IMG/VR virus record: IMGVR_UViG_3300000304_000005
Coordinates: 64,001-126,194 of that record
Reading direction: 5' to 3' (one strand)
Source: a virus
Taxonomy: Duplodnaviria > Heunggongvirae > Uroviricota > Caudoviricetes
DNA: 62,194 nt
Shown: positions 1 through 41,528 of the stretch, in pieces
Layout of the letters: each line of letters begins with the position of its first letter
Numbering within the stretch: position 1 is the stretch's first letter
Notes under the pieces: model-generated
What the model was told of the DNA's origin: nothing
The model's database searches: none
Seen by the model: only the letters and a program-made list of their open reading frames with translations
Made by a program: the position numbers and the translations under genes

Positions 1-1923
1 TATAATTTGCAGTGCCGCCAGATGTAACAGAAGACGCTACATCCTTTGCGAACCCAAGATTATCTTTGACAAAATCCGAAGGATTATTCGCCATATTCCA
101 AATATTTCTGGTGGCATCCGCATTAAGTACGCTATCATTCTTGGCAAGCGGGGTTAAGATTGCACCATCAGAAGGACGAACAATCATCTCCGCGCCTTCT
201 TCTTGCGTCCATGCCAACTGGTCAGCTTCAAGTTTACGTTTACCAGTTGCTAGAGCTTTAACATCAGATTCCTTAAACCAACCTGTATAACCCTTTGATT
301 GACTATGGTGCCTAACTAGGATATAACCACGACTGCTCTTTTGCAGTACAACATAAATTGGGTCGTTGGCGAAATATTGCCTGCCGCCTCCGTTGCCGTA
401 GGAATCTGCATAAATTCTTGCACTACCGGCATTAATTCTACCACCAACAGTAACCTGTTTCGGTTGTTCTTGCTGCTGGTTATTATTATCATTATTATTA
501 TTGTTTGCAGGGGGCGTTGGTTTTGTCACAGGAATATTATTCGCGTTATTATCATTTGTGCTTTGAATATTCTGCTGAGCTTGATTGTTCAGTGCGGTAA
601 TCATGTTCTGAATACCGACATTGATTTTCTCTAATGTATTGGCAATTGTCGTTCCGTTAGTCAAGAAACCTTCGCCGTACATCTTCAAAACATCTTGAGT
701 GCCATTTGAAGAATCCCAAATAGCCTGAGTTTCTTCGCTCAACTGATAACCTACGTTTGCAGCTTCAGCACTTATTACCTCATTAATGGAACTGGCATTC
801 ATATTGATATATTCAATCATATCGGCAATTAATGCATCGATATTATCAAGACGCATATTGAGAATGGTTTCGTAGTCGTTCCTCATAGTATCTAGGATAC
901 GCTCAATATCGCTAATCGCCTGTTCGCGTTCGGTATCCGCTAAATCTTTACGTGCATCATTAAGGTCGTTTGTAAGCTTTTGAATAGTTGCTTTGGTTTC
1001 TTCGCTGTTATCGTTGGCATAAGCTGAAAGCTGCTTCTCTAAGCTGGCAATGTCTTGAGTCTTTTCAGAAACTTCGTTTTGATAATCGTATAAATCTTCT
1101 TGAGCCTGAAGCGCTTCAAGATACTTGTCAATTAAATCATCTAAGTGCTGTAATTCAAGGTCTATACCTTCTTCAACAAGGTCTTTTATGCTATTCTTCA
1201 TGTCTTCGGCTGAAAGTATCGCTTCTTGCTGCGCTTCAACAAGCTCATAATACCTATCTGCCAAATCTAAGTCGGCAGGGTCTTCGGCCATCTGCTTTTC
1301 AATTTCCTTGATTTCCTGAGCATATCTATCAGCCTGATTCATTAAGATATTATATTGCTCACCATAAAGACCCATTGTTGCCATGCCTTTATCGGTAAGC
1401 TGTCCGTTATCCTCGAATAGTTTTTCATTACTCATTAAATCAATCAAGAATTGCGCTTCATCCGCGACAGAAGAAATTCTATCTTGTAAAATATCAAATG
1501 TTTCCCATTTGGTTTCACGAATAGCATTATAGTATTCTCGCCACTGATTGCCTAGTTCATGAATGGAAAGCGAAACCTCGTTGATGGCATCATTCTGTTT
1601 ATCCCATTCGGGAGTGCCAACTACCAATTTACCAGCATTTACCAAATCATCGCGCGTTTTTATCATTGCTTCGCGTTGTGCTCTAAGCTGGTTTGCCTGT
1701 TGATGCACATTGTCCATGAGGGCTTGATAATATTTTTCACTTACAAGATGGCCGTTAAGCTCTTCGCGGTCAACATAGATTTCCAAGTCTTGTTGAGTAT
1801 ATTCAAGAGAATTAAGCACGCCCTCAAACTGCTCTGAGACATTCTCAAATTTTTGATGTGCAAGGTCACCAAGAGATTCATTTAAATCTACAATTGCGTC
1901 TTTTGCATCTAAAGCTTTTTCAT
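1..1923 (-). CDS. Tape measure protein, exon 4 (3' end runs off the window)
   Basis: Reading frame appears open from 1921 to the window edge. Splicing gives ...QEW-Y-EKALDAKDAIVDL (TGGT|AT GAA). Contains an N-rich linker, an SH3-like module and ALATG...WTQEEGAEMI. Absent from the ORF track because no stop lies in the window. Confidence 0.9.
260..430 (-). other. SH3-like domain inside the TMP, paralogous to early ORF 61318-61554
   Basis: Manual translation AGSARIYADSYGNGGGRQYFANDPIYVVLQKSSRGYILVRHHSQSKGYTGWFKESDV. The SH3 call is inferred from the GWF..SDV ending. Confidence 0.7.
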
Positions 1924-3095
1924 CGTTGTGTTTAATTGATTCGCTACATCAATTGGATTATAAAATCCCACATGCTTTCACATGTGACCAGACTATATCT
2001 TTTACCTATAAACTAAGTTTTCTTTTAATGTTTTTTCTGTATTATCAAAATATAACATTAATAGTTTATAGGTAACACACCATTTTGAATCACCAATCGC
2101 TTGTGATTCTACAAATTATATTAAGCAGTTAAATTATATTTTTCAGAAAATTCAATACTACTTTTTAATCTATTGGGAAAATATTTCATATCAAATTTAT
2201 AATAAAACTCTTTTGGGATATATTTTAAATACGGTCTAACAATATCAAAAAATTTTCTAAAATTCTCCGCATTAAAATAAAGTCTATAATATACAGAATT
2301 TTTATGATTATTAATACCAGAATGGTCCTTGTGTATCTTTAGCTCTATACCAAATCGTTCTTTAAACATCTTCTGTATTTTACAATTCTCTTCATATGAA
2401 AACGATTGAGTGTTTAAATACCCAAAACGTTTTGTGCTATTGTTTTTTGTTGATACATGCCATTGTCCATCATCTAAGAACCATAATAATAATCCAAATT
2501 CATTAATGTGTTCCATTACATAATCGGATATTATTTTCTTACCACCATCATTAAAACATTTATTCATAGATTCAAAATAAAATTTTTTAGGTACTTTTAT
2601 ATTTATATGACTATACATTATCTCACCAAATGTAGTATGTCGTATATAATGATACCTAGAAGATGTCTTTAATCCATAATTTGAAAATATCTTTTCAAGC
2701 CATTCACAATAAAAATCCTGTTTGTCTGTATGCGCGTTACATACCCAGCCATTCCTATAATTTCCATCTCCCAAAAGTAATCCATACAAAGAATAAGTAA
2801 TTTCTTTTTCTGAAAAATCTTTTAAAAAGTTATACATATGTGAATCCTCACTCAAAATAATTAATATAATTTTAGCCGTTGAACCTTACTCTATTCGAGT
2901 CTTGGCTGCTGATTGCCCATTATTATATCCACTTAGGCTTACGCCATATGGTATCAAACTAATTTTTTCTGATTTCTCTACATATCGCACATATCTTTAT
3001 TTCATGATTATGCTGTAGTTTAGTTTGCTTTAGAGTGTCCCAGCAATTAAGTGTGATTCATATATTTATCGCTAAATATATGGGCATAATTAAAT
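1924..3095 (-). mobile_element. Group I intron TMP-I3 with LAGLIDADG ORF
   Basis: 5' exon ends in U, with P1 GGT|AT pairing to ATGCC. Core motifs TAATTGCTGGGA, GGCAATCAGCAGCC, GGTTCAACGGCTA, AAGATATAGTCTGG. Terminal G at 1924. Splicing restores the frame. Confidence 0.92.
2121..2855 (-). CDS. Intron-encoded LAGLIDADG homing endonuclease (two motifs)
   Basis: LYGLLLGDG and LLLWFLDDG motifs plus LNTQSFS. Lies between the R and S elements of TMP-I3. Confidence 0.88.
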   Translation of the reverse strand: MSEDSHMYNFLKDFSEKEITYSLYGLLLGDGNYRNGWVCNAHTDKQDFYCEWLEKIFSNYGLKTSSRYHYIRHTTFGEIMYSHINIKVPKKFYFESMNKCFNDGGKKIISDYVMEHINEFGLLLWFLDDGQWHVSTKNNSTKRFGYLNTQSFSYEENCKIQKMFKERFGIELKIHKDHSGINNHKNSVYYRLYFNAENFRKFFDIVRPYLKYIPKEFYYKFDMKYFPNRLKSSIEFSEKYNLTA

Positions 3096-6000
3096 ACCAT
3101 TCTTGATATTTTTGAATTTGGTCATTTAATGCTTCATCTGTAATGGTATCAAGGTCAATCATGCCATTTTGAATCTTTTCAATCCAATCAGCAGATAAGC
3201 CAACAGAATTAGCCTCTTGCATATATCTATCATATGCCTGCTGCTGCATATCAATTTCTTGACGTGTTACGGTCATTGATTCATTAAGCGCATCATTTTT
3301 CTCAGACCAACTTCTATATGTGCTAGATGCCACAGTATCAAGATTATCAAGAGCGCGTTCGATTCGGTCAATTGCAACCTCAATCCAGTCAAGTGTTTCC
3401 TCGAATTCGTCTGCTTCTTTTTTAGCTTTAGACGAAGATGAACCTTTAGAACTACCGCTGGATTTAGCAGAAGAACCATAGTTATAGTTATTAGTAGTGT
3501 TGTTTACTACTGTGGTTGTACCAGAAGATGAAGAACCGCCGCCCCAAGGTTTGGCAAATCCACCGCCACCAGATACACTTGCAAATGCTGTACCTTCAGC
3601 GAATGCTCTACCACGTCCACCATTTGACGTTACATAGCCATTCTTAAGTAATTCTTCAGACTGAAGATGGTTAAAGATAATATCGCCCTTTTTATATTGA
3701 TAGAACCCTGCGCCATTATCGCCAACAGTAAACCATTTATCACCACGAACAATAATCTCAGGACCAAGCTCGCCCATAAGAGCAGTGCCAGATTCTTCTG
3801 TTCCCCATTTACCTTGTTTAAAAGCCCTACCGGTATTTGCCGTACCGTCTGCATGAGCGGTACCATTAGCGCCTCCGGGGCCTTCAACAACAGCAGAATA
3901 TTTAATAGTTCCATATTTAGTAGGAGGTGACCAACTATAAACACCAGAAGAAGCCGATATACCATATGAGACAGTGCCAGATTTAGATGGCGGACTCCAC
4001 GCATCAACTTGAGAAGAATCAACCTTATATGCTACTGTTCCTTCTTTGGGAGCAGGCTGATATGCGTCAACAGCCGCCGAATTAACGCTTGTATTTACAA
4101 TAACGCTAATTTGTTTAGACTGAATATTCGCAAGAGCATTTTGAAGATTTGTTACCGCCTGAGAGTTTTGAATCGATACAGAAGCATTAATAACCTTATT
4201 ATCAATAGCATTCATTTTTGATTCTAATGCTGCAATTTTGTCATCTCCGGCAAGAGACACAGAAGCGTTGATAACTTTATTATCAATAGCATTCATTTTT
4301 GATTCAAGCGCAGCAATCTTATCGTCACCAGTCAAAGATACACTTGCATCGATAGTCTTATTATCAATGGCATTCATCTTTGACTCTAATGCAGCGATTT
4401 TATCATCGCCTGTCAGAGAAACGGTTGCATCGATAGTTTTGTTATCGATAGCGTTCATTTTAGATTCTAATGCCGCTATCTTGTCATCGCCCGTTAGATT
4501 GACCTGAACATCAACTGTTTTATCTTGTAGTTCAAGACCAGCAATATCTGATTCTGCTTTAGATGTATCAGCGCCAAATTTAACGTCCATTTCTCCAATA
4601 TTTTCGGGAGAAAATGCGGCTTTAACCTCATCAATACCAGCGTTTTCATCAATACCAAGTTTTACTTTCAGGTCACCATTGTCTGCAATTGCTTGTGCAA
4701 GATTATCAACCTTAGCCTGCGCATCATCAATTCGGCTATCATCAACATCGATAACGCCATATTGTGCTTGCAACTGAAGATTGCTAAGCTCATTCAGAGC
4801 AGCTTGCATCTCTTGTGCTTTTGTCAAAGCATCTTGCATAGAAGCATCAACATTTGATACATCAAGTGACATAAATGCAGGCTGTTCAAGCTCAAGCTTC
4901 TGTGCAATTACGGTTTGAATTGCCGAGTTGACTGCTGCAACACCTTGTTCTTTAACTTCAACAGTAGCATCGCTGTTATTAATTTCATCTCGCTGTGCTT
5001 TAAGTGTTTCAAGCTTGGAAACAGCGTTATTTGTACCATCTCCCGTTTCTTGAACACTATAATCAATCTCGAAATCTTTACCAAGATACTGCTGTAGCGA
5101 TTCTTGCGCCTGCTTCGCAGCGGCCTCAGATTCAGATACAAGTTCATCAACAGATTTTTGGTCAACGCCAATTTTAAACTCAAAACCATAATCATTAGCT
5201 TTGCCAAGCATCATTTCAACAAAGGCATTCGATTTACCTAAAGACTTAGCGATATCTTCAATCTCAACATTGGGCTTTAATTCTAAATCGCCTTCACTGT
5301 TTAGCTGAAGAAACTCATCTCTGATATCATTGATGAAATTTTCAGCACCTTCGCGACCCTCTGTTAAATACCTATTTTGTGTATCTACGACTTCTTGCCA
5401 ATGAGCAGAATAAGCATCAGCGTCCCAATCATCAGTCACACCTTCACCAAAGAACATATCAGCATATGACTGAACATCATTACGACCGAATAGACCCTGT
5501 GATGCGTATTCATTCATCTGTTCGGCTGCGCTAACGACGTTATCATACATATCGCCTTCTTCGCCGCCAGATTGAGCATTAATCCAACGATTGTATGCCG
5601 AAGTAAGACCATCATACGCAGAAGCCGCCATTTGGGCTTCTTGGATTTCTTCTGCAAGAGCATCCATTCGGTTCTGATTTATAGTAGCCAAATCAGCATT
5701 GCCAGCCGCAACAGCTTCATCTCTAGCTTTTTTAAGCTCGGCATATTGTTTAACCTGAGCGTCAATTTTTTGTTCTTGCGCTGCTTTATTTGTAGCAACA
5801 TATTGTTTTTCAAGAGACTCAAGCGCGTCTACATTTAATCTGACACCTGTAGTTGTCTTTTCAAACAAACCAGCGGGGTCATATCCTTCAAGGTTCGCGT
5901 ACCTGCTTATTACGCCATCGATTGATTCTTGCGACAACCCCATTGCACCATTTGATTCTTGAATGGCAGTATTAAGCTTCGATAAACTCTCTGTCTCAGC

Positions 6001-8526
6001 GGTTATATCAAGTTCAAAACTAATAGCCTGATTAAATTTTGCTGCTTCTTCAATTTTAGCTCGAATCTGGTCTGTATTAAGATTTTCTACATCGATTTCA
6101 CCAGAAGCAATTAAATCAAGAGCAACAGTCATCTCAGAAGAATTAAGTCCATCAATAAGGTTCTTCGCCGCTTCCTCACCAATATTCTTGCCTTTTGTAA
6201 GATGATTAAACAACTCGTCATATTGTTGTTGTACGTCATCGACATTGAGAGAAAGCTTCAATTCATTTTTAACATCGTCTCCAACATTAAGACCATCAAT
6301 CATTGATGACACTTCATCAAGCTGTTTTTTATATTCACCAAGCGAAATTTCTCCGCTTTGGAATGTACCGCTTAAATCAAACGCAGATTTAAATTGTTCA
6401 AGTTTGTCCGCACCCATACCATCAAGAGCGCTAGCAATATTGTTTACATAATCAATTACAGCTTCGTCTCCACCTGTGCGGTTAAGCTCTGCAATGGTGG
6501 CCGAATCTATGCCGTTTACAATTGATGTGGCAATAGACTGAGCGCTTTCATCAAGATTTTCATAATCTCCTTGCAGGAATGCATTTTCCATATGAGCGGC
6601 CATTGCTGTGCGCATTTCTTGAGTAGCAGTATCTAGCGCAGACTCATAATCAGTTACCATTCCTCTAACCACTTCAGGATATTGTTCAAATGCCTTTGAA
6701 AGATATTTTGCACTATCGTCTATACCTGTAAGTGTGTTTGGAGGGTCAATGCCTTCAATTTCTTTATTCGCTTCCTCAAGAGCTTCAGCAACATCACGTG
6801 CCGCGTTTTTAATATGCGGCTTGATATTAGAATCATTAAGCATTGCCTCTGGACTAATATCTCCAAGGTCAAATATATTTTGAAGTGCTTCCACAACATT
6901 CTTGTCGCCAACCAACCCGTTGATATCATTCGCTAAGTCTTCAGAAATATCACTGATACCTTTATAATCTTCTCCATCACCATTAAGAAGTTTATTATTC
7001 TCAGCGATAATTAAATTATTATAAGCTTCTGTTAATTTGTCAACATTGCCAGCGGCATTAAGAATTGCGTTTCCTTGTGCGTCATATCCCGCAACAAGAG
7101 AAGGAGTAATATCAGCAATTGTATTTACGGCGTTAGCATATTCTTCGTACTCATCAGATGATAGACTAATATTTTTCCCGGTAATTTGATTTACGCCATT
7201 TGCAAGTTTCTCGTATGATTCAATGGCGCTATCAAAAGAACTTTTACTATCAGCAATCTGTTTCTTTTGTGCATCAAATGATTGTGTGGTTTCTTCTACA
7301 GCCTTTTTAACATTGTCTGCTCGGTTGATAAATTCAATAAATTTTCCAATAACAAAATCAAGCGCCATTCCACCGAGCATCATAAGTCCGCCACTTAAAA
7401 CACCCGTTGCAACATTCATAGCAAGACTTTTTGCGGTAGCTGCTACAGTTTGTCCAGTAAAACCTCTAAGACTAGCTTCTGCACCATCAAGAGATGCCAT
7501 GTAGTCACCAACAGATGTCCCGGCTACTTCGGCGGACTGCGCCATAGCTCTGCGTTCTTCGGTAGATTTCCTATTATATTCATCGAGCACCATGATGCTT
7601 GATTTAAAGCTCTTGTTTTGAGCTTGATTTGCAAGAATGGCGCTTCTTGCACTTGATTCATATTCATCAGCGGATAAGTCTGCTGCATCCATGCTTTGAG
7701 CATATTGTCTTGCAGATTCAGATGCACCAGCAAAAGAACGGTCTAATGCGTCTTGCACCGCTATATTAACATCAGAAGTCATTAGCTCTTTATATTTTTG
7801 AATGGCAGCTTTGTCTTTATCGAGCGTCTTTTCAAGTTGAATAAATGGGTTGTTACTTTCACCAAATGATTTGGTTAGCTTTGCAATTCCATTAGAACCA
7901 AAGAAAGAACCGAACAGTGTTCCGATTTCACTTAAAGATTTACCAAAAATCTTAAGCTTACTACTGCCATCGTCTATATATGCAATACCTTTTCCAAACA
8001 TAGAGAAGGCGGCAGTGGCAGCGCCAAGAGCAACGGGTATTAATCCGATATTATCAATCAGACTTGTGAATCCATTAATAAGAGCGGTGATTGTACTTAC
8101 TCCACCTTTGAGGAATCCACTATCTAGAACAGACGTTGACATTGCTTGAAACGATGCTGTCATACTGTTTAAGCGACCCTGCAAAGAATCAATGTATTTT
8201 GCATTTTCTGCCGCAGCAGAACCTTCGGCATTCGTTGCAGTTTCAACCATTTCACGCGCCGTGTCCCAATTCTGAATTAAGGCGGCAACTGTGTTCGCAT
8301 GGTTCTTGCCAGCAATTGTTTCAAGTAGGTCTGCCCTGTCTGTATCAGACAGCCTATCATAGACATCGGCGATGCCATCCATAATTTCATAGGTGCTCTT
8401 AAATTCACCATTGTCCTTAAAAATATTAACAGCACCATCAGTCATATTAAGAATCTGACCTTGCATCTTAGAAATATTCTCTACGCCTTCAGATTCTTCT
8501 CCAAGTTCTTCGAGTTCGCCCTTCAT
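3096..8526 (-). CDS. Tape measure protein, exon 3
   Basis: 5431 nt starting MKGELEELGEE after the intron terminal G. Typical TMP motifs (IAGKNHANTVAALIQNW, YIDSLQGRLNSM). The ORF-track N- and C-terminal extensions are intron sequence. Confidence 0.93.
4168..4491 (-). repeat. Four tandem 81-bp (27-aa) repeats in the TMP
   Basis: GDDKIAALESKMNAIDNK(T/V)I(D/N)A(T/S)VS(L/I) four times. Equivalent positions 4238, 4319, 4400 and 4481 are 81 bp apart. Confidence 0.95.
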
Positions 8527-8927
8527 CGTTCTATTACTTTCCCCTGCGAACAAAAGGGTACTGACCATATTAATTATGGCGGATAGTCATTTCTGGCTAT
8601 CTCTCACATTTCATATCATTGGGTTATAGTGTGAGTCTAGACCATACTTATCCCTCGACTTTACGTTAGGGTGTAGCATACGTCATATGGTTACCCATAC
8701 AACTGTGGTCGTTACGGGATTCTTTATTAACAAATAAAGCCTTACCCACGGTATTGCCCATCCCATTGGGGTTCCACCGTTTTGAGCTACTTCAATGTAT
8801 AATGTTGCTTATAAAACACTGGTTATTATGATAATAACCAGTGTAAATTTATTTTGTATATTTATTTATATTAAGCAATACAACAAAGCTTATAGCTTTC
8901 ACTATAAGGAGGCGTGTTATATAGTTC
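8527..8927 (-). ncRNA. Group I intron TMP-I2 (401 nt, no ORF)
   Basis: P1 GAGGT|G pairs with CGCCTC with a U-G at the splice site. Core AAAACGGTGGAACCC, GGCAATACCGTG, CCCGTAACGACC, AAGTATGGTCTAG. Terminal G at 8527. Junction IRG|MKGE is in frame. Confidence 0.9.
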
Positions 8928-9011
8928 ACCTCGAATACGAAGAGATAGAGTTCGCATTGCTGTGCCAACACGAGTTGGGTCTTGGGTAACCTCACCTGCG
9001 GCACCAATCAT
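8928..9011 (-). CDS. Tape measure protein, 84-nt micro-exon 2
   Basis: Encodes MIGAAGEVTQDPTRVGTAMRTLSLRIRG, the conserved TMP segment expected between EEAAA and MKGELEE. Confidence 0.92.
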
Positions 9012-9048
9012 CTTTTATATTCACGAAGTTCGTAACGCTTCGCATGTA

Positions 9049-10203
9049 TTAATTATGTGTTTTATAATTTTTAATAAATTCGTTCCATTGTTCTAAAGTG
9101 TTATCTCCATAACCATATTGCTTATGAAATTTTTTATGAACGCTTTCAGAAATACAAACATATGCACCGTATAATTCTTGAAGTTCTAAAAATGATTCCA
9201 TAAAATAATCTAATTGTTCTTGAGTATATAAACCAAAATCATCATAAATAGGAAAACTAAGAATATCAACACACTCTTCTAATAATAAATTAAAACTACG
9301 TATATGATGAACAACAATATTAGACCTCGAACCTGTAATTTCACATGTATAATCATGCTCTTCTCTAACTTTATTTCTCCATGGTACAAGTCGTTGCCTA
9401 ATATAATTATACAAATTATCATAATTAGAAATTTCTGTAGGCTTATGAAGATTAAGCAAATACATTCTAACTTTTATAGCCATAATAGTTCTGCCTAATT
9501 CATTACTCATATCTTCGTATGATTTATCAATATAATTATCTTTTAAATATTGAATCTCACTATCACTCCAAAGACGATTAAGATAAAAATAACTTTTTAA
9601 ATCATATTTTCTTGCCTGTCCTAAAATAGCGTATTGGGTTCTTCCGGGCAATAATTTCATTACTTCTGACATGGGTTTTATAGAATAATTATTAATAAGA
9701 ATCTCTACTTCTTCATTTGTCCATATATTTGCAGATTTCACAATTCCTAAATCAAGAGCTTTTCTATATAAGCTATGCGGTTGAATTGAACGATTAAGCT
9801 TTTTCAATATTTCTTTATATGATAGTTTACCATAATATTTTCTCAATATATCTTCGTCTTCTTTAGACCAGCACATTACTTCATGTTTGCACTCTTCAGA
9901 ACAAAAATGCTTCAAAGACTTATCGTATTTATATTTTTGAATTTCATATTCTTTACCGCAATTATCACAAACACATATCACCCTATTACGCTGTGCTTCG
10001 CCTGCACATTTTTTACTACAATATATAGTATTAGAATCATGAGCATCGAAAAGCTTTCCACAATTAGGACATATATGATTTTTAAGTTTTGAATTTTTAT
10101 CTCTATATTTTTGATAGCACACTTTAGAACAAAATTTAGAATTTTTAAAATAATTTTCGTATTCTTTACCACAGTACATACATACATGTTTTATTTTCCC
10201 CAT
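9049..10203 (-). CDS. Intron-encoded HNH-type endonuclease with N-terminal Zn fingers and Trp-rich repeats
   Basis: Repeated CxxC...CSxxC and W(S/T)xEE motifs. C-terminal CEITG...VHHI...CISESVHKKFH. Confidence 0.75.
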   Translation of the reverse strand: MGKIKHVCMYCGKEYENYFKNSKFCSKVCYQKYRDKNSKLKNHICPNCGKLFDAHDSNTIYCSKKCAGEAQRNRVICVCDNCGKEYEIQKYKYDKSLKHFCSEECKHEVMCWSKEDEDILRKYYGKLSYKEILKKLNRSIQPHSLYRKALDLGIVKSANIWTNEEVEILINNYSIKPMSEVMKLLPGRTQYAILGQARKYDLKSYFYLNRLWSDSEIQYLKDNYIDKSYEDMSNELGRTIMAIKVRMYLLNLHKPTEISNYDNLYNYIRQRLVPWRNKVREEHDYTCEITGSRSNIVVHHIRSFNLLLEECVDILSFPIYDDFGLYTQEQLDYFMESFLELQELYGAYVCISESVHKKFHKQYGYGDNTLEQWNEFIKNYKTHN

Positions 10204-10241
10204 ATTATCACCTGTATATTATCGAAGGGACAAATCATAAT

Positions 10242-10409
10242 CTACTTATAAAATTTTGATAATGCATCAAAAAGCATTTTTGTTTTAATATATTTATAAG
10301 TAGTAACACCATTAATGACTTTTATAAAAGATGGATTTATATCACAACTTTTCAAATAAATCATTTCAGGCGTATATTGCGTTGAATATTCTTTATCAAA
10401 TTTTTTCAT
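10242..10409 (-). CDS. 55-aa passenger ORF inside TMP-I1 (DUF5659-like)
   Basis: MKKFDKEYSTQYTPEMIYLKSCDINPSFIKVINGVTTYKYIKTKMLFDALSKFYK preceded by GGAG. Below the ORF-track cutoff. Family assignment recalled, not searched. Confidence 0.7.
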   Translation of the reverse strand: MKKFDKEYSTQYTPEMIYLKSCDINPSFIKVINGVTTYKYIKTKMLFDALSKFYK

Positions 10410-10709
10410 AAATATCTCCACATAATTAACACATCAACATGTTTCCATATTGAATAGACCATATCTTCACCCTCAGCATTATACAATTATCAAAGTACAA
10501 TCCGTTAGGGGCGCACCATTTCGAGCTACCATAAACTTGTAGCTCTACGAGTATATCACTCTGGTCGTTGAACTTTCTTCCTCATACAAATTACCATATT
10601 TTCTATATAATCTATGTTAGGAAGCTTAGCTGCTGATTATCCAATCCTTACGTTTTTAAACCTTCATATAGTAGTTTCCTCTATATTGTGGTGTAAGGCT
10701 CTACATAAT

Positions 10710-11378
10710 TTACACACATAAAAAAGACTCCACATAATCTCTAGTGACAATTCGAGAATATGGAATCCTAACCATTTTAATATTGTGTTTATTACAATAC
10801 TCATCTTTAATTTTATCTGTAATATAAACCGGTGTATATCCAGACATTAATGTCAATGTATTAAAATATGAATCTTTTACAACGTGTTGCATTCCATCAC
10901 ATTCTACTACAAGATTAATGTCTTTAATATATATGTCAAATTTTAAATGATAATTTGTTTCTGGATTTATACACCCATCAAACATAGCTTCCTCAAATAT
11001 CTGATAATTTTGATAAATTTGTCTTATATATTTTGTCACAGAAGTTTGAAATTTGCTATACTGTCTTGATATATTATTACGAGATAGAATTTCACTATAA
11101 GACATATGATATTCTTTACAATATTTACTAAATGTCTTTGAAGCAATATGAGTATCTTTTAAACACTCTTTTAATGTCTTAACAACGCCATATTGATTGT
11201 AATTATCAACAACATATTTTTCAATTTTTCCAATAACATTTTGATAATTCAACCCTCTTTGTTGTGTAGTCAACTGAGACTTATATTTGCTTAAGCATTC
11301 GTCACTACAACATTTATTTTTATATCCATGATAAACAAATTCTTTACCACATATAATGCAATTTGTAGTAGTTGCCAT
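10710..11378 (-). CDS. Intron-encoded PD-(D/E)XK / Vsr-like endonuclease
   Basis: LKFDIYI...VVECDGMQH...DKIKDEYC...MVRIPY and an N-terminal CxxC...CCSxxC. Start at 11378 chosen from the AAGGTG RBS. Confidence 0.8.
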   Translation of the reverse strand: MATTTNCIICGKEFVYHGYKNKCCSDECLSKYKSQLTTQQRGLNYQNVIGKIEKYVVDNYNQYGVVKTLKECLKDTHIASKTFSKYCKEYHMSYSEILSRNNISRQYSKFQTSVTKYIRQIYQNYQIFEEAMFDGCINPETNYHLKFDIYIKDINLVVECDGMQHVVKDSYFNTLTLMSGYTPVYITDKIKDEYCNKHNIKMVRIPYSRIVTRDYVESFLCV

Positions 11379-11494
11379 TATTATCACCTTCTTAAAGGTG
11401 TGTAAATTATGCGATAGGATTATCCTATCGAGGAACTCCCAGCAATTAGATGCGTACTAAACATATATTTCTATATGTACAACCTAGTTTTCTA

Positions 11495-13450
11495 AGCTGC
11501 TGCTTCTTCAAATGTATTTCCAGCTAATTCTAGTGCCGATGCAGAACGTGCCAATCCCTCGCCAAGACCGGCAGAAGTAATTGAATATTTATTATCCAAT
11601 TCGTTAAATGCATCAGCAATGTGGTTAACAGAAGCAACCACATTACCTTCGCCAAAATCTTGATTAAATGTATCTTTAAAACCATTATAGGCCGTTAAAA
11701 GGTTCTTAGATGCTTCGGCATAGTCAAGGTCTGAAATGTGCTGATACATAGCAGTAATATCAGCAAGCTGCAATGATGTATCTGCATCATAACCAGCACG
11801 AACCCAGTCTGCTGTAGCATTAATCGTATCAGTAAGAGTGGTACCATATTCCTTAGAAGAAGCAATCATATCAGAATACAGTTTATCATACTGGGCAGAA
11901 GTTAAATCCGTAACTCGATATAGACCGGTCATAGCCGTATCTACTTCAAGTACATTTTGCGCCATCATTCGAACAGCTTGAAAACCTTGCATAAATACAC
12001 CGGCAATACCAACATAAGATGCATATTGTCTAAATTGATTCTTAAGCCTATCACCGAAAGTCATCGTTGCCTTATCGGCAGTTTGTGCTTCTAGCTTAAC
12101 CTGCTGAAACTCTGATTTAAGATTATTTAAAGACGCAGAATCATTACATTGTTGTATTCTTGCTCTGATATTTTCAAGTTTGTCACCAAAATCAACAGCA
12201 GCAGCAGAATTGTTTTTTAGCCAAGATTGAATCTGCAAATCAAACGTCTTCTTTGATGATTCTAACTTTGTTAAATCCGTTTGATTTTTAATTTCGCGAT
12301 TGACACGCTGCTGCATAGATTCATTTGCTTTGAGCCTATTCTGAGTTACGGTTAATGCTTCATTATATTTATTTTGAAAACTAAGAAGCTCATCTATATT
12401 CCCTGTTTGCTGATATTTTGCCGAAGCATTACCGAATTCAGACCTCAAATTTTTCAGTTGTTCATACGCCTTTGTAAGTTCAGGAGTTTTATTAGCAATC
12501 TTATCAATACGAGCTGTTAATTGTTCAAAACCACCGTCAAGCGTTCCATTGTTAATTTTGCTAGCAAACGTATCGGCCATCTTGCGACGAGCATCTTCAA
12601 CCTTTGCTATTGTTTTATCTAAATCTGCTCTTGCTCTAGCTCCGCTTTCGGCTATACTATCAAAGAAACCATCAGGTATATTATTACCAAGTTTAGTTTG
12701 CAGCTCAACAGCCTTTTGAATAAGCCTGTCAATTTCGTTATCTATGGCCTTATATTGATTTGAGTTAACATCTAATCCGACTTGCTGTTTTTGCAAACTA
12801 TCCATTCGCTTATATGCACTAGCAAGCTCATTCATAGCAGCCTTAGTTTCAGATGCCTGCTGCTTAATGGCATTATTATGGCCTATATCACCATTTTTTT
12901 TCTGAATCATAGAGAGTTGATGGTCAACTTTTTCAAGCTCAATGGCAAATTCTCTAGCAGCAGTAACATCTAAACCATCAAAAATATCAATCTCGTTTGA
13001 ATCTGCAATCTTTTTTCTTGTTATTAATTTATCAAGATATTGTTCTAGCTCTTTTAATTGCCCAACATTAACGTCTGGATTGATAGAAAGCCTATTAATT
13101 TCTTTAATGGCGTTGTTAATTTCACGAATATTATCACGATATTCTTTTCCAGAACCAATCTGCGTGCTAACCTCAAGAGTTTGATTTTTTATATTTTTAA
13201 AAGCATCATTAGCTTTTTTTACAACACCAGAAGTATTAACATCGACATCTAATTTAACAGTTGCTTTTTTGCCAGACCCAACGCCAAGCGCTTTATTGAT
13301 TTGACTGGTCACTTGCTTGCTGATATCAGAAGCGTCAACATTAACTTTGATATCAAGCGTCTTATTCTCAAGAGAGTTTATTTTTTTCTCAAAAGCATCA
13401 AGTTTACCAGTATCAATATTAGTATCAACAGAAATTCTATAATCTGCCAA
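11495..13450 (-). CDS. Tape measure protein, exon 1
   Basis: 652 codons from a TTG start with AAGGTGGTG RBS. TP901-type core (VLEVDTAMTGLYRVTD...ADWVRAG...NELDNKY...GLARSASAL). The TAG at 11492-11494 is the first intron triplet. Confidence 0.93.
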
Positions 13451-13539
13451 TTATAATCACCACCTTAAAGTGCTATCTACACCATTCATGTGCCATACAG
13501 CACCAATAAGGTGCCATTTTTCAATAAATAAAAGCAACC

Positions 13540-13974
13540 CTAATGAATAGGGATGCCAGCAGCTATCAATTCTTTTTTTACAATGCTCATGATTTGCCCG
13601 TCTATTTGATTCATACTTTTAGTCCATACGGCAGTTCCTCCGGGCTTAGCGCCACCGTGGCTATCTTCACCACCGAGCATAACGCCAGCAAGAATGCGTT
13701 CCTCATCCCAATCATCTTTAATATGATTAAACATGCTAGAATCAATATAAATTTCAAAACTAGCACCGACCATTCTCCCTTTAACAGAAGCACTTGCCAT
13801 ATCATAAATTGCCCGTGCTATCTGATATGTTCGAGAATACATTCTTGGATTATACTCACTATAATACTCCATGCAAACGCGATAAATAATATCCCTGACT
13901 TGAATCTTGACAGCCTCCATAGCCTTTACAACTTTTTTGGCTAAATCTTGTTTAATCTGTTGAACAGTAGCCAT
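13540..13974 (-). CDS. Hypothetical protein, possible tail completion protein
   Basis: 144-aa ORF in the tail operon with YxRTY motif; function from position only. Confidence 0.55.
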   Translation of the reverse strand: MATVQQIKQDLAKKVVKAMEAVKIQVRDIIYRVCMEYYSEYNPRMYSRTYQIARAIYDMASASVKGRMVGASFEIYIDSSMFNHIKDDWDEERILAGVMLGGEDSHGGAKPGGTAVWTKSMNQIDGQIMSIVKKELIAAGIPIH

Positions 13975-13979
13975 AACTA

Positions 13980-14693
13980 TTACTCCGCGTTATTCTCTGT
14001 TTCCTTAACAGTGTTCTTTTTTCGAGCAGAAGCCTTCTTAGAAACCGCACCGTCCTTGCCATCAACTACAGCAAAGTCATTATTCTTCTTCGCATTCTCA
14101 CGAACTTTCTCCATAGTTACCTCTCGTTTTTTCTGATTCGCTATAACTTCCTTCGCCTGCTTCTTAAATACATCAGACTTAGCATATGCTTCAAGCATCT
14201 TCTTAGGAGTAATATCTCCTTTCAACTTACCGAAGACATTTGCCATGCCAGTCATAGCATCAACATCGATGTCTGCGAACTTCTTCTCAAGAGTATCAAG
14301 AACCTTTGAGATAGCATCGGCGATAAGGGAAGGATGAATACCGGTCTTATATTCAATCATCTTATCCACATTTTCATAAAGCTCCTGAACAACATCAAAG
14401 TCCATACCGAGCTTCATGACCGTAGCTGCGTTATTATTCGCAAGGAACTCTTCAACGTAATCGATAGTATCCTCATTATTATCAGCAATAACGATATCAC
14501 TGAAGAATTCAATAAGACAGAAGTCAAAAGTCATATCCTTAATCATAGGATAGTAATAATCATCGCCACATACCGTGTCTACAACAGACTTAACAAAAGA
14601 AAGCTTCTTGCTCATAGAAGGGCTAGCGTAGTAATTGAACTCAATCTCTTCGCCGTTGCTAATATAAGTATCATTAATAATCTTATCGCTCAT
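13980..14693 (-). CDS. Hypothetical protein, possible tail assembly chaperone
   Basis: 237-aa ORF with RBS upstream of the TMP. Confidence 0.55.
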   Translation of the reverse strand: MSDKIINDTYISNGEEIEFNYYASPSMSKKLSFVKSVVDTVCGDDYYYPMIKDMTFDFCLIEFFSDIVIADNNEDTIDYVEEFLANNNAATVMKLGMDFDVVQELYENVDKMIEYKTGIHPSLIADAISKVLDTLEKKFADIDVDAMTGMANVFGKLKGDITPKKMLEAYAKSDVFKKQAKEVIANQKKREVTMEKVRENAKKNNDFAVVDGKDGAVSKKASARKKNTVKETENNAE

Positions 14694-36845: not shown

Positions 36846-37928
36846 TTAATTAAGCTGAGGGGTAGACCCTACATCCTTTTTTCTTTGCCTATATCGCTGC
36901 ATTTCTAACCGCTTTAACTCTCTTTTGTGCTCTTTTAAGCAACTATCACAACGACAAGTTGCAGAATCAAAAATACTTACCTCAAACCATTCACCACAAT
37001 CAACACATTGAATTTCTTTGGTTTTCTTTTTAATCTTGCTAGACAAGTTCTTATAAATAACATCACCATAGCAAAGCCAAAGAGCAGTCTTATTAGCGCT
37101 CTTTTTAATTCCATATAGATACTTGACAAGAATATCAACTATATCATCTTCGCCTTTACCATATTGAGAAAGAGCAGAACGAATCTCATTGACAATACGC
37201 GCAAGTTTCGTTTGCATGCGCATATATGCTTCGCTTCTATCATTACCTTTTGAACACAGAGCGCTATCTAGTGCAAGATAATACATCTTATCAAATTCAC
37301 AATATTTAACAATAATAGGTTCGGTTTCTTCTTGAATGATACGACCATTTGTCGCAAACGAAACATCGAATTCAATATCTGGATTATTCATCAGTAAACG
37401 ATAATCAATATCTTCTATATCGAGTTTTCTTAAATTGATACGCGGATTTGGAATCATTGTTTCGAGCTTATTGACAAAGCTTAAATTTGCAGGAATGATT
37501 TGATTATCATTTTTATCCTTAGCATATTTAAAGAAATGTGGCAGCGGGTTATTTGTGAATGAATTGATTTTATCATTTACTTCATCTGGACGTGTTGGCT
37601 TATATAAAGTTTTCGCATAATCGATAACGAAATTATTTTCCATGCACAAAATTTTAATCAAATCAACAGCATCTTTTTGCTCATAGATATCGCCGTCAAC
37701 AAAGATATCGCTATTCCAAATCTTAGAGATATTGTTGCTGTATATTCCGATGTTTCCTCCGACAAATGCTGCATTCAAACCATGGTAAATCGATTCATTG
37801 CTTAGGATAACCGGTTCTGCTTTCTTCATATCGTAATACAGAGGAACAATATCAAACTTTTTAATATTGCGCTTTGCTACATCAATAATTGTTTTATCTG
37901 CAACTACAAGCGACTTATCTCCGTCAAC
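36846..37928 (-). CDS. yonO: YonO-like single-subunit RNA polymerase, exon 3
   Basis: Starts VDGDKSL, completing QFD|VDGD. ENNFVIDYAKT motif and C-terminal Zn ribbon. Confidence 0.88.
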   Translation of the reverse strand, partial: VDGDKSLVVADKTIIDVAKRNIKKFDIVPLYYDMKKAEPVILSNESIYHGLNAAFVGGNIGIYSNNISKIWNSDIFVDGDIYEQKDAVDLIKILCMENNFVIDYAKTLYKPTRPDEVNDKINSFTNNPLPHFFKYAKDKNDNQIIPANLSFVNKLETMIPNPRINLRKLDIEDIDYRLLMNNPDIEFDVSFATNGRIIQEETEPIIVKYCEFDKMYYLALDSALCSKGNDRSEAYMRMQTKLARIVNEIRSALSQYGKGEDDIVDILVKYLYGIKKSANKTALWLCYGDVIYKNLSSKIKKKTKEIQCVDCGEWFEVSIFDSATCRCDSCLKEHKRELKRLEMQRYRQRKKDVGSTPQLN

Positions 37929-38302
37929 CACAATTAACCATATAAGATTAACTGTAGACTATATCATAACCATATCCTTTCGGACTTAGGTTCTCGGCGC
38001 TTCCAAACAAGGGATTACACCTTGAATGTACTCTACTCAGTTATTTGCATATAACCATATCTGTTAGACTTAGGAAATATGCTATCCTTTCGATAGTCGT
38101 TACACTTATGCAAATCCAAAATAATCAATATACTTGTATTCAGTCATTTTGCCATCCTCTCTAACAAAATGACTTGATTTGCATTTAGCACGGGATTCCT
38201 TTCGGTTCCCCGTTAGCACGATTATAAAACCGCACACCCTAGATTTCTAGGTTCACCGAGTTTTATTTCTTATAGTTTCCTATAAGTTCGACATTAATGG
38301 TC
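37929..38302 (-). ncRNA. Group I intron RNAP-I2 (374 nt) inside the catalytic DxDGD motif
   Basis: P1 TTCGAT| pairs with GTCGAA. Core GCTAACGGGGAA, AATCCCGTGCTAA, GTAACGACTATC, ATGATATAGTCTAC. Terminal G at 37929. Confidence 0.92.
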
Positions 38303-39376
38303 ATCGAATTGGAGAACTCTACTAATTAAATCCTTAACGCTCGTATACACAGCATTAGTGCAGAACCATTCACGAATCCAATCTCGTTTATCGCATTCAT
38401 AATACGCCATGTTCTTTCTCACGGCATGTTCCAAAAACAGGTGTGGACTTCTCAAACAATCCAATTCTCCGTCTTTTCTAAACAGCCAACAGAACACCTC
38501 TCCGTTATCAAGAAGGCCATTAGGAGAATCGAACCCTAAAAACCAATGCTCGCATGCAGCATAGAAATCTGGAAGGATGAACGTATACTTCCCATGAACA
38601 TCGAGCTTACCGGCTTTACACTTTTTAACAATACTATCTTTGATACGTCGTAAATGAGATTTTGCGTATTCATCGTTTAACAGTTCAGGATAGATATCGA
38701 TACATTTTTGGAAAGCGGTTTTGTTCATATTATACGGTGTTACACCGAATACATTCTTGATATTCTGTATATTGCCGCACAGATTGGTTAGCTTATCAAC
38801 AGAAGGTTCGGTTATCTTCTCAATCTCTTCATCTGTGATGTCTGTCAAACTCTGTAACATCTGATAGTTGATTGTAGCGTCCTTAATCCTATCTTCCTCG
38901 ACATTCGTCACGCCTGCGGTACAATGATATTTCTTATATTTCTCTTTGTACTCGTCCCAGTCAGAATAGTATTTATACAATTTAAATTGGCTTTTTGAAA
39001 AGATGACCTGAATACCTTCGGCGATAATGTCATGTTCAACACCGTATATATCTTTGATGATAGGCGAGCATTCATGATAATCGATAAATTTCAGATAATC
39101 GAATACCCCGAGCAAGCCTTTTACAAACGGTAGGCGCACCATCATATTCTTCTGAGGAACACCGAAAGCATTAGGTAGCATCATACCGGCACCATCTGTA
39201 TGAGCGATAGGCTTATGTCCATGTTCGCGAGTAATGGTGTAATCAATATCGCTTACGAAATCAAATGTACCGAATACTTCCGTCTCGAAATCATCAATCA
39301 CGATGGACTTATCAATATCGAATTCTTTCCACACATCTGTAGCCGAGTTGCTTAAGGCGAGATATGCTAAATGTTT
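38303..39376 (-). CDS. yonO: YonO-like RNA polymerase, exon 2
   Basis: KHLAYLALSNSAT...HTDGAGM...VRLPFVKGLL...CLRSPHL...RVLQFD; 358 codons. Confidence 0.9.
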
Positions 39377-40784
39377 CCTTTATACCCCCGGTTTCCCGGT
39401 ACTTTAACACTGATTTAACAGTGGGAGTAGACTATATCATCACCCCATGTCAATTCATGGGCTTGTACATTACAAGGACATCTCGTGTGCGGCACTTCGC
39501 AATCAGGAATTTCACCTGAAAGCTACTCCTTTCGGATAGTCGTTTGACCTTCCTCATTAAGAGGCTTGGCACAGGATTAACATATAAATTATAATTTTAT
39601 TTTAAACTTCATTTATTTTGTAATATATGAATCTTATTTAACAAATCATTACAAGATTGTGTTAAATCTTCATCAAATCTTATTTCATATAAAAGTATAT
39701 TGTTTGATTTACAATAATCCTTTTTCTTTTTATCACTATAGTTTCTTTGATATGAGCCAAAGTAACCACAGTCTATGTAATGTTGTTCTCCTTGATATTC
39801 TATAAGCATAATTACATTAAGCTCGTTATCAAGTATGGCAAAATCAAACCTTAAAAGATTTCCGCTTTTATTTCTTAAATCATCAAATGAATATTCGCGA
39901 ACATACATGATGTTGTTTTCAGTTAAGAATTCCGACAATTGCATTTCGCCCTTTGATTTATTTCTATCACATCCGCAACTCGTTGTATTTCCACTTCTAA
40001 GGTTACCGCCTTGACATACAACAATGTTTCCGCAGTCACATTTACATTTCCACATAGGACTCGTCATTATGCGTTTTTCTGTCCTATAAACATAATCTTC
40101 CGCTCTCTCAATAACGACAAGTTTACCAAATCGCTTACCAGTTAAGTCAATTAGGCCATCACCTTTGTGCTTCGTTGTCATACAACCACATGATTTTACA
40201 TGTCCGTTTTTGAGGTCTTGCGATGTTGCAATCTTTTTATTACCGCAATCACATTCGCACAACCATGTCGGTTTCTTTTGCCCTCCTTGTGAAACATGTG
40301 TACCATGCCGTTTAACAACTGTTAATTTGCCAAACCTTTTGCCAATCATATCTGATATCTCTTTTGGTTGAGAAATAATTTCTTTATTAAGACATCCACA
40401 AGATTGTGTCGCACCGCTTCTTAAAGAATAAGAGTTGATATATTTAACATTCCCGCATTCGCATTGGCAAATCCAATAAGCCCCTTTATCGCTGCTAACA
40501 CTTTTATCTCGTTCTATAACAGTTAGTCTTCCAAAAACTTGTCCGGTTAAATCAATAAACCTTCCCATAACACCTCCTTTTTATTTTTTCAATTATTTGC
40601 AAACGGAATTTATAAAATGAAGTTTATTAAAAATTATAATTTACTTAGTCTTTCCCTGTTAGCACATTTTCAAGCCATCATTTCCTATGGCTCCTTTGTA
40701 TACAACAAAGTGAAATGTACACCCTATATTTATAGGTTCACCGCATTTTCGATACGCATTGCTGCGCAAAGGAACTATATATTA
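39377..40784 (-). mobile_element. Group I intron RNAP-I1 with endonuclease ORF
   Basis: P1 GAAT|TA pairs with TAGTTC. Core GCTAACAGGGAA, GTTAATCCTGTGCC, AAACGACTATCC, ATGATATAGTCTAC. Terminal G at 39377. Junction NNPN|KHLAY. Confidence 0.92.
39609..40568 (-). CDS. Intron-encoded PD-(D/E)XK endonuclease with three AP2/Zn-like repeats
   Basis: Three DLxGxxFGxLxV...WxCxCxCG...L..G...SCGC units, then SKGE...LRFDFAI...IEYQGEQH. Confidence 0.85.
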   Translation of the reverse strand: MGRFIDLTGQVFGRLTVIERDKSVSSDKGAYWICQCECGNVKYINSYSLRSGATQSCGCLNKEIISQPKEISDMIGKRFGKLTVVKRHGTHVSQGGQKKPTWLCECDCGNKKIATSQDLKNGHVKSCGCMTTKHKGDGLIDLTGKRFGKLVVIERAEDYVYRTEKRIMTSPMWKCKCDCGNIVVCQGGNLRSGNTTSCGCDRNKSKGEMQLSEFLTENNIMYVREYSFDDLRNKSGNLLRFDFAILDNELNVIMLIEYQGEQHYIDCGYFGSYQRNYSDKKKKDYCKSNNILLYEIRFDEDLTQSCNDLLNKIHILQNK

Positions 40785-41528
40785 ATTCGGATTGTTACCA
40801 CCTTTAGCATTGATATCATCTAGAGTAAGTCCGCACATAATAGACTTTTCGTATTTCTTCCATACAGACTCTTTAACGAAAACGCATTTCTTGGTTCTAA
40901 TCTGTCCAGCACTCGATGTGAAATATATGTATTTCTCGCCCTTATACATAAATCCGTTGTAAATCAAATCCTGAGCAACAGAGAAATAGAATACCTTGAT
41001 AATCATGAAATCATCTGAGAACTCATTCGGCTTTGCTCCGATGGTCCGTGTAAAATACGAATCGAACACCGAGATAACTTTGTTATCCGACACAGCATCA
41101 TCTCTAAGTTGACGAATATGATGTCGAGAATCAGATGAGATATTGGCATTCACCTTGTTCTCTAAAAGCTTAAGCAATCTATCTTTGATTTCCTTTGCCT
41201 TTTTATTCTTGTGCGAAACAAGTTTTCTCTTGTCTATGTATTCATAACAGAGGCTAGATACAACAGCAGCATCATCGCCGTGAATAGAAAAATCATAATC
41301 ACCATTAGAAATTTGTTTGATACATTCATTATCGATTTCATACTCGTTTCGTAACCTTCTTTCAATCTCCTTGGTACCGACAATAGTTTTCCTGCCAGAC
41401 TTGAAACCATTGATAAGCTTGTTCTTTTCCAAGCGAATCTTATGGTTGATGTCGTGCAGACGCTTTTCTTTATTGCTATAGAAATCAGAAGTATCCAAAG
41501 CAAGCACATTAATCTGTCTATCAAGCAC
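40785..41528 (-). CDS. yonO: YonO-like RNA polymerase, exon 1
   Basis: GTG start; FTSSAGQIRTKKCVF motif. Spliced product about 966 aa. Confidence 0.88.

Follow-up and report, generated by a model that had tools for sequence, protein, structure and literature searches.

A phage tape-measure gene with three putative group I introns and an 84-nt exon, from the chicken gut

The stretch of DNA analysed here, hereafter called the window, comprises 62,194 nt of an uncultured phage from the chicken gut (IMG/VR record IMGVR_UViG_3300000304_000005, positions 64,001 to 126,194), which is represented by a metagenome assembly with an estimated completeness of 93%. Its host is probably a gut bacterium of the class Clostridia. 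The minus strand of its first 13,450 nt carries a gene for a tail tape-measure protein (TMP), and this gene reaches past the window start. In the list of open reading frames (ORFs), the region appears as four long minus-strand frames (13450-11492, 9011-8871, 8568-3058 and 1819-<1); the three intervening stretches are interrupted by stop codons and include endonuclease-type ORFs. An initial annotation of the window had proposed that these frames belong to one giant gene, that three group I introns divide it, and that one of its exons is only 84 nt long, and the exon boundaries that it gave proved to be exact. The exons are as follows:

11495..13450, minus strand: TMP exon 1, 1956 nt, 652 codons, TTG start with ribosome-binding site; identified from the ORF list, PF10145 and phrog_4211 positions 214-753
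8928..9011, minus strand: TMP exon 2 (micro-exon), 84 nt, 28 codons, MIGAAGEVTQDPTRVGTAMRTLSLRIRG
3096..8526, minus strand: TMP exon 3, 5431 nt; phrog_4211 positions 781-2020
1..1923, minus strand: TMP exon 4, which runs on for 166 nt outside the window before its stop codon; tape-measure match to phrog_339

Joined in this order (13450-11495, 9011-8928, 8526-3096 and 1923-<1), the exons give 3131 codons without a stop within the window, and the frame extends a further 166 nt past the window start to its stop codon, for a total of 3186 aa, in keeping with the predicted product of more than 3,100 aa. The peptides across the junctions are EEAAA|MIGAA, RIRG|MKGE and EW(Y)EKAL, as originally claimed (the last as EW-Y|EKAL), with the Y codon split T|AT at the third junction. 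A strong ribosome-binding site, AAGGTGGTGA, lies 6 nt upstream of the TTG start at 13450, and the start residue is also the first residue of four homologues.

The tape-measure identity of the product was established from profile matches in the exons together with the tail genes of relatives, in which genes for the YomU tail tube and YomW lie upstream of the TMP gene. Exon 1 matches PF10145 (PhageMin_Tail) above the cut-off (41.5 bits, cut-off 33.2), and the match ends at position 119 of the 201 in the profile. Exons 1 and 3 cover consecutive ranges of the tape-measure profile phrog_4211 (214-753 and 781-2020, the latter with E 2e-50), and the gap of ~27 positions between 753 and 781 corresponds in size to the proposed 28-codon exon 2. 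At ~1.5 Å per residue, the value from other siphoviruses, a single TMP of 3,186 residues would imply a tail of roughly 0.45-0.5 micrometre.

Comparisons were made mainly with metagenomic relatives. Megablast of window positions 1-13500 against deposited phages gave no match, and tblastn against deposited phages gave only distant tape-measure matches with 24-42% identity (SPbeta-like, Tsamsa-like and Sundance), while a search with exon 3 matched 616 relatives, every one of them metagenomic. The TMP loci of eight relatives (L001, L004-L006 and L009-L012), which are contigs 116-127 kb long whose tail genes are SPbeta-like (YomU tube, YomW), were compared by mapping their exons and aligning introns found at the same sites. 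Scans of IMG/VR with patterns made from intron core motifs returned one relative each for introns 1 and 3 and none for intron 2. Additionally, contigs from four chicken-gut DNA metagenomes were mapped onto the region.

A failure of intron-less homologues to align across the predicted junctions had been named in the initial annotation as an outcome that would speak against the gene model. A search with the joined protein produced alignments (high-scoring segment pairs) spanning junctions 1, 2 and 3 in 58, 63 and 60 cases, respectively, and local alignment with uninterrupted homologues was gapless at all three junctions, with no residues unaccounted for across the joined TMP. The residues of exon 2 show 0 indels in 58 uninterrupted homologues, with 8 of the 28 positions invariant, and exon 2 is 100% identical in L004, where exon 3 is only 44% identical. 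Judged from these alignments, the support that homologues lend to the four-exon join lies far beyond chance.

DNA that lacks individual introns gave the same junctions. In contig X6 record 13, window position 8526 is joined directly to 8928, such that intron 2 is exactly missing and intron 1 is retained, and intron 2 is likewise missing to the base in the IMG/VR relative L001. Contig X1 record 3 spans 764 nt where the window has 1936, exactly what the exon bases (464 + 300) should add up to if the 1172-nt intron 3 is absent, and P0001, which is 96% identical over exon 3, is continuous through the intron 3 site. The more diverged contig X5 record 8 spans 2991 nt, with ~2963 expected in the absence of introns 1 and 2. 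Close relatives therefore differ by the precise presence or absence of an intron at the same site, which is the pattern by which mobile introns are recognized.

The three intervening sequences have the following features:

9012..11494, minus strand: intron 1, putative group I, 2483 nt; guide sequence GGUUGU at 11479-11484; J8/7-P7' AAGATATGGTCT at 10456-10467; final G at 9012
8527..8927, minus strand: intron 2, putative group I, 401 nt, no ORF; guide sequence GCCUC at 8909-8913; final G at 8527
1924..3095, minus strand: intron 3, putative group I, 1172 nt; guide sequence GCC(C)AU at 3080-3085; J8/7-P7' AAGATATAGTCT at 1990-2001; final G at 1924

The splice-site features that the initial annotation had reported, namely a U-G pair in P1 at each 5' splice site and a G at the end of each intron, are present in all three. 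The U that ends each upstream exon stands opposite a G of the guide sequence, P1 being formed by GCAGCU|UAG with CUAGGUUGU (intron 1), GAGGU with GCCUC (intron 2) and AUGGU with GCC(C)AU (intron 3), and the terminal G is found in all of the relatives' introns as well. At the intron 3 site (2491 in the numbering of the joined protein), the guide sequence covaries with a synonymous exon change, as GAAUGGU occurs with GCC(C)AU and GAGUGGU with GCCAC. The sequence AAGATATRGTCT was found in introns 1 and 3, and a P10 pairing is plausible for intron 3 only (UUAU with AUGA).

Matches to the Rfam group I model RF00028 (gathering threshold, 50 bits) appeared only when stretches of 0.5-1.2 kb were searched. 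Under these conditions intron 1 matched at 10435-10746 (38 bits, E 7e-8), intron 2 matched the full model at 8610-8848 (23.3 bits, E 7e-4), and intron 3 matched in two halves on either side of its LAGLIDADG ORF (2871-3048, 25.7 bits, and 1971-2073, 22.6 bits). The RF00028 model is weak on ORF-bearing IA introns. As these scores fall below the cut-off, independent evidence was sought in the helices of the relatives' introns and their covariation. Among seven sequences of the intron 1 family, 15 compensatory pairs occur in P1, P3, P6, P7, P7.1, P7.2, P8 and P9.1, with helices P6a and P9.2, which were mislocated, excluded from the evidence. For the seven introns of the intron 3 family, compensatory change was seen at 19 of the 62 pairs tested, and pairing is canonical in 419 of 434 cells (96.5%). 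The intron 2 family (four sequences, with the same site occupied in L004, L006 and L010) has compensatory changes, read from the alignment, in P2, P2.1, P6, P7.1 and two P9 hairpins, and the fold energy of intron 2 lies 4.6 standard deviations below that of shuffled sequences (z-score -4.6). Two hairpins in introns 1 and 3, and one in intron 2, separate the 5' strand of P7 from the 3' strand of P3, again with compensatory changes, and from these hairpins (P7.1/P7.2) we read the introns as being probably of an IA-like subgroup.

Several observations weigh against the assignment of these sequences to self-splicing group I introns. Rfam returned no group I match for the whole window at the gathering threshold or for positions 1-14000 at E<=10, and the matches obtained with shorter stretches all score below the 50-bit gathering score. 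The P1 of intron 3 requires a one-base bulge, and a search for P10 pairings gave nothing convincing in introns 1 and 2. The covariation comes from four to seven related sequences per site, aligned for this analysis and read without a formal phylogeny-aware test. Finally, the sequencing runs that contain the sequence are chicken or bird gut DNA contigs only, with no RNA run among them.

The possibility that the 2.5-kb intron 1 is a twintron or conceals a further exon was rejected, with no protein residues left unaccounted for and with the 378-nt version of this intron in L009 consisting of a single core; positions 9012-10400 were not searched separately with Rfam. In the P2.1 region of intron 2, a perfect 13-bp palindromic hairpin (8816-8844) is followed on the RNA strand by UUUU and resembles a terminator; compensatory changes retain it in L004 and L010, and it is absent in L006.

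Two of the introns carry genes:

10710..11387, minus strand: intron 1 ORF A, 225 aa, homing-endonuclease-like, looped out from the P5 region; phrog_559 (E 9e-15) and phrog_9084 (E 6e-10)
10242..10421, minus strand: intron 1 small ORF, 59 aa, in the P9.1 loop, upstream of the HNH gene; from the ORF list
9049..10203, minus strand: intron 1 ORF B, 384 aa, HNH-type, in the P9.1 loop; phrog_1891 and phrog_15471 ('HNH endonuclease') and phrog_323
2121..2855, minus strand: intron 3 ORF, 244 aa, LAGLIDADG homing endonuclease, directly after the 5' strand of P7; PF03161

The intron 3 product aligns to positions 4-168 of the 168-position PF03161 profile with 80 bits (cut-off 25). ORF A and ORF B of intron 1 each match PHROG families that bear the name HNH endonuclease, and neither ORF has an HNH match in Pfam, NCBIfam or PDB. 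ORF B contains Myb-like repeats and, by eye, a C-terminal HH...N...H pattern, while ORF A may alternatively be of the PD-(D/E)XK type. The 59-aa ORF, which is also present in L012, has no family match, and searches of PDB and NCBIfam gave nothing useful for it.

Gain or loss of these genes, as whole blocks, is seen among copies of the same introns. ORF A is absent as a 727-nt block from L001, L005, L009, L011 and L012 as well as from contigs of X1, X5 and X7. ORF B is missing in L004 and L009, is reduced to remnants in L001, L005 and L011, and is skipped by some contigs, and the smallest version of intron 1, the ORF-less 378-nt copy in L009, has neither. In the ORF-less copies of L001 (6748-7283) and L005 (9311-9946), the first codons of the 59-aa ORF run directly into the final ~150 nt of the HNH gene, a scar indicating that the endonuclease was lost rather than primitively absent. 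Contigs of X1, X5 and X6 have 12 nt in place of the intron 3 ORF, and in the relatives this intron is either ORF-less (395-425 nt) or has an unrelated 332-aa ORF elsewhere within it. Intron 2, which is without an ORF in the window, has a 436-aa ORF in L010. Contig depth over the intron 1 core (10443-10896) exceeds that of the flanking exons (264 vs ~154 in X1), which suggests that these samples contain related cores elsewhere, either in different genes or in different phages.

Taken together, the sequence comparisons make it very probable that the locus holds one late minus-strand gene for a tail TMP of 3,186 residues, interrupted by three group I (IA-like) self-splicing introns. The proposal of a giant tape-measure gene with three group I introns and a real 84-nt exon has thereby held up, supported by homologous proteins that align across the junctions, DNA alleles without introns, Rfam matches below the threshold, helix covariation and homing endonuclease genes within introns. 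After transcription, presumably late in infection, each intron would fold into a ribozyme core and bind the end of the upstream exon via its U-G-containing P1 helix. Free guanosine would then cut the intron from the upstream exon, and the intron would be freed at its terminal G while the exons are ligated, restoring the frame EEAAA-MIGAA...RIRG-MKGE...QEWY-EKAL. The introns themselves are mobile DNA and would persist as selfish elements through their endonucleases, with the three intron-borne enzymes promoting homing.

It is extremely improbable that no splicing takes place and that endonuclease-gene insertions have instead split the gene into pieces that are translated separately and assembled as subunits, like the mobE-split nrdA of Aeromonas phage Aeh1. 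Gene callers do report separate ORFs, and exons 2 and 3 of the window phage both start with ATG; however, residue 653, at which exon 2 starts, is Leu (TTA) in relatives, so that exon 2 would be unable to initiate translation alone, and it is implausible that 28 residues from inside a conserved domain would be made as a peptide of their own. Separately translated pieces are also unlikely because intron 2 lacks any endonuclease gene in the window and because the RNA helices appear to be under selection, their maintenance by compensatory changes being expected only if the RNA must fold. The chance is similarly slight that at least one intron no longer splices, leaving a TMP pseudogene in a defective phage, or that the arrangement is an assembly artefact. 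Such decay would be in line with the Rfam scores below cut-off and with a record that is a metagenome assembly estimated to be 93% complete, but all exons are intact over 3186 codons, the core elements are intact and close to those of the ORF-less versions, and the same intron arrangement occurs in independent assemblies from several studies.

The gene model with three self-splicing introns also bears on whether the 84-nt exon might be skipped. The initial annotation had noted that joining exon 1 to exon 3 keeps the frame, which stands as a matter of arithmetic (1956 nt in exon 1 and 84 nt in exon 2), and there is documented precedent for tandem group I introns causing such skips, both in Twort orf142 and in the SIOphi polymerase, where 47% of transcripts are affected (PMC11878797). 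An exon 2-skipped product may thus arise as a by-product. Functional alternative splicing, in which part of the transcripts would yield a useful isoform 28 residues shorter, is very unlikely. Such an isoform is unsupported, given that the 28 residues belong to the PF10145 region, are partly invariant and are never deleted in the 58 uninterrupted homologues, and the perfect identity of exon 2 in L004 contrasts with the divergence of exon 3 there. Moreover, many relatives lack one or both of the flanking introns, so a skipped isoform could not be general, and the change in length would be less than 1%.

We next considered the distribution of introns across the TMP family. In joined-protein numbering, intron sites were found at 619, 652, 680, ~757, 2302, 2491 and 2767, with ORF ends suggesting a possible eighth at 2597. 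The window gene is occupied at 652, 680 and 2491, L004 at 619, 652, 680 and 2491, L005 and L011 at 652 and 2491, L006 and L010 at 619, 680 and 2491, L009 at 652, 2302, 2491 and 2767, L012 at 652, and L001 at 652 and ~757. Intron number thus ranges from none, in proteins such as P0093, through one (L012) to as many as four (L004 and L009). The 360-nt intron at site 2302 of L009 (14944-15333) matches RF00028 with 73.1 bits, above the gathering score. Neither the 1.6-kb intervening sequence at site 2767 of L009 (18186-19755, with a 370-aa DUF723/CapR-type ORF) nor the site-619 intron of L004 has an RF00028 match at E<=1, and it is their position that suggests that both are introns. Within L004:7810-10042 there are two consecutive micro-exons, of 99 nt (~8174-8302) and 84 nt (9485-9568), neither of which was called as a gene. 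The expectation that standard annotation would fragment the gene and overlook such micro-exons is thereby borne out in the relatives' gene calls.

Identity between the window gene (1-13450) and that of L004 (5953-18616) is mosaic. Exon 1, exon 4 and the introns share 95-99% identity, and the range for these parts together with the micro-exon is 91-99%. In mid-exon 3 identity is <70% or no alignment is possible, and identity falls off away from the introns. This pattern is suggestive of co-conversion or of module exchange around homing sites. A broader proposal can be built on it, in which an SPbeta-like clade of gut phages has in its TMP gene a landing strip of at least 7-8 intron sites, endonuclease-driven co-conversion shuffles TMP modules, and occasional exon skipping gives a functional minor variant. 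We consider this combination unlikely; if it were true, the introns would do more than ride along in TMP genes.

Two further loci touch on mobile elements in this phage group. In L005 (3224-3985) and L011 (3268-4029), a GIY-YIG/NUMOD3 endonuclease gene lies directly upstream of the tail-tube (YomU) gene, where it may mark a further intron or be a homing gene that stands alone within the tail module. Elsewhere in the window, three minus-strand ORFs within 36846-41528 (40782-41528, 38294-39334 and 36846-37931) correspond to consecutive parts of phrog_8308, a family of unknown function (positions 1-189, 205-550 and 551-846). RF00028 matches with 25.4 bits at 39409-39649 and with 15.7 bits at 37934-38122 lie between these ORFs, and ATGATATAGTCT motifs occur within the region at 39429-39440 and 37956-37967. 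The region also contains a 319-aa homing-endonuclease gene (39609-40568) related to ORF A of intron 1. Read from these sequence features, 36846-41528 is a putative second multi-intron gene.

For annotation, these findings mean that a gene shown as three large, unrelated-looking ORFs plus endonucleases, with its 84-nt exon never called, would have as its true product one protein of 3,186 residues. The relatives supply a comparative set of sites with and without introns, and of introns with and without endonuclease genes, that is usable for the study of intron gain, endonuclease turnover and co-conversion. The window gene adds a well-documented case from Firmicute gut phages to growing evidence that TMP genes are preferred homes of group I introns. 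What is distinctive here is the size of the protein, the intron with two endonuclease genes and the rich presence/absence series in relatives.

Multi-intron TMP genes are already known by experiment in other phages, and the present case is a further example rather than a new mechanism. The rarity that the initial annotation implied for such a gene was overstated, as published cases exist (PMC2504315, PMC10448857). In Vibrio phage ICP1, the TMP gene has four exons separated by three introns, and splicing was established by RNA sequencing and reverse-transcription PCR (Barth, Dunham & Seed 2023, PMC10448857), and the same study terms the tape-measure gene a frequently interrupted gene. The window gene resembles it in having four exons with several introns in a TMP gene. 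The ICP1 introns also carry HNH endonuclease genes, and their content varies between isolates while the splice junctions are constant (PMC10448857), much as with the endonuclease-type genes of the window phage and its relatives. In contrast, splicing was demonstrated in ICP1, whereas we infer it here, and ICP1 is an unrelated phage of a Gram-negative host. The window phage further differs in having two sites ~1,800 codons apart, with two endonuclease genes and a small ORF in one intron and a LAGLIDADG gene in another.

A further parallel is provided by Bacillus cereus-group prophages, in which the group I introns TMP-IVS1, IVS2 and IVS3a/b, of IA1 and IA2 types, occupy three TMP sites (Tourasse & Kolsto 2008, PMC2504315). 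Like the window gene, these are TMP genes of Firmicute phages with several group I introns at three sites, of IA type in the prophages and probably IA-like in the window; a stop codon stands at or near the start of the introns, their endonuclease genes lie in loops and are often deleted, and related introns adapt their guide sequence to the site. The prophage TMP differs in being ~1,200 residues long with no more than two of the three sites occupied per prophage, compared with 3,186 residues in the window TMP and, in its family, at least 7-8 sites and up to four introns per gene.

Likenesses extend to other structural genes. Cluster J mycobacteriophages have introns in capsid and minor-tail genes (Pope et al. 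2013, PMC3706429), which were likewise found by comparison with intron-less relatives and share the U at the exon end and the G at the intron end; these are single introns, in phages of high-GC hosts and in genes other than TMP. Staphylococcus phage Twort has three group I introns in orf142, the tail tube gene, with exon skipping observed (Landthaler & Shub 1999, PMC22036, as cited in PMC11878797). By that cited account, orf142 shares with the window gene its three group I introns in a late structural gene and a very short internal exon, and differs from it in being another gene and in that both splicing and skipping in Twort are experimental.

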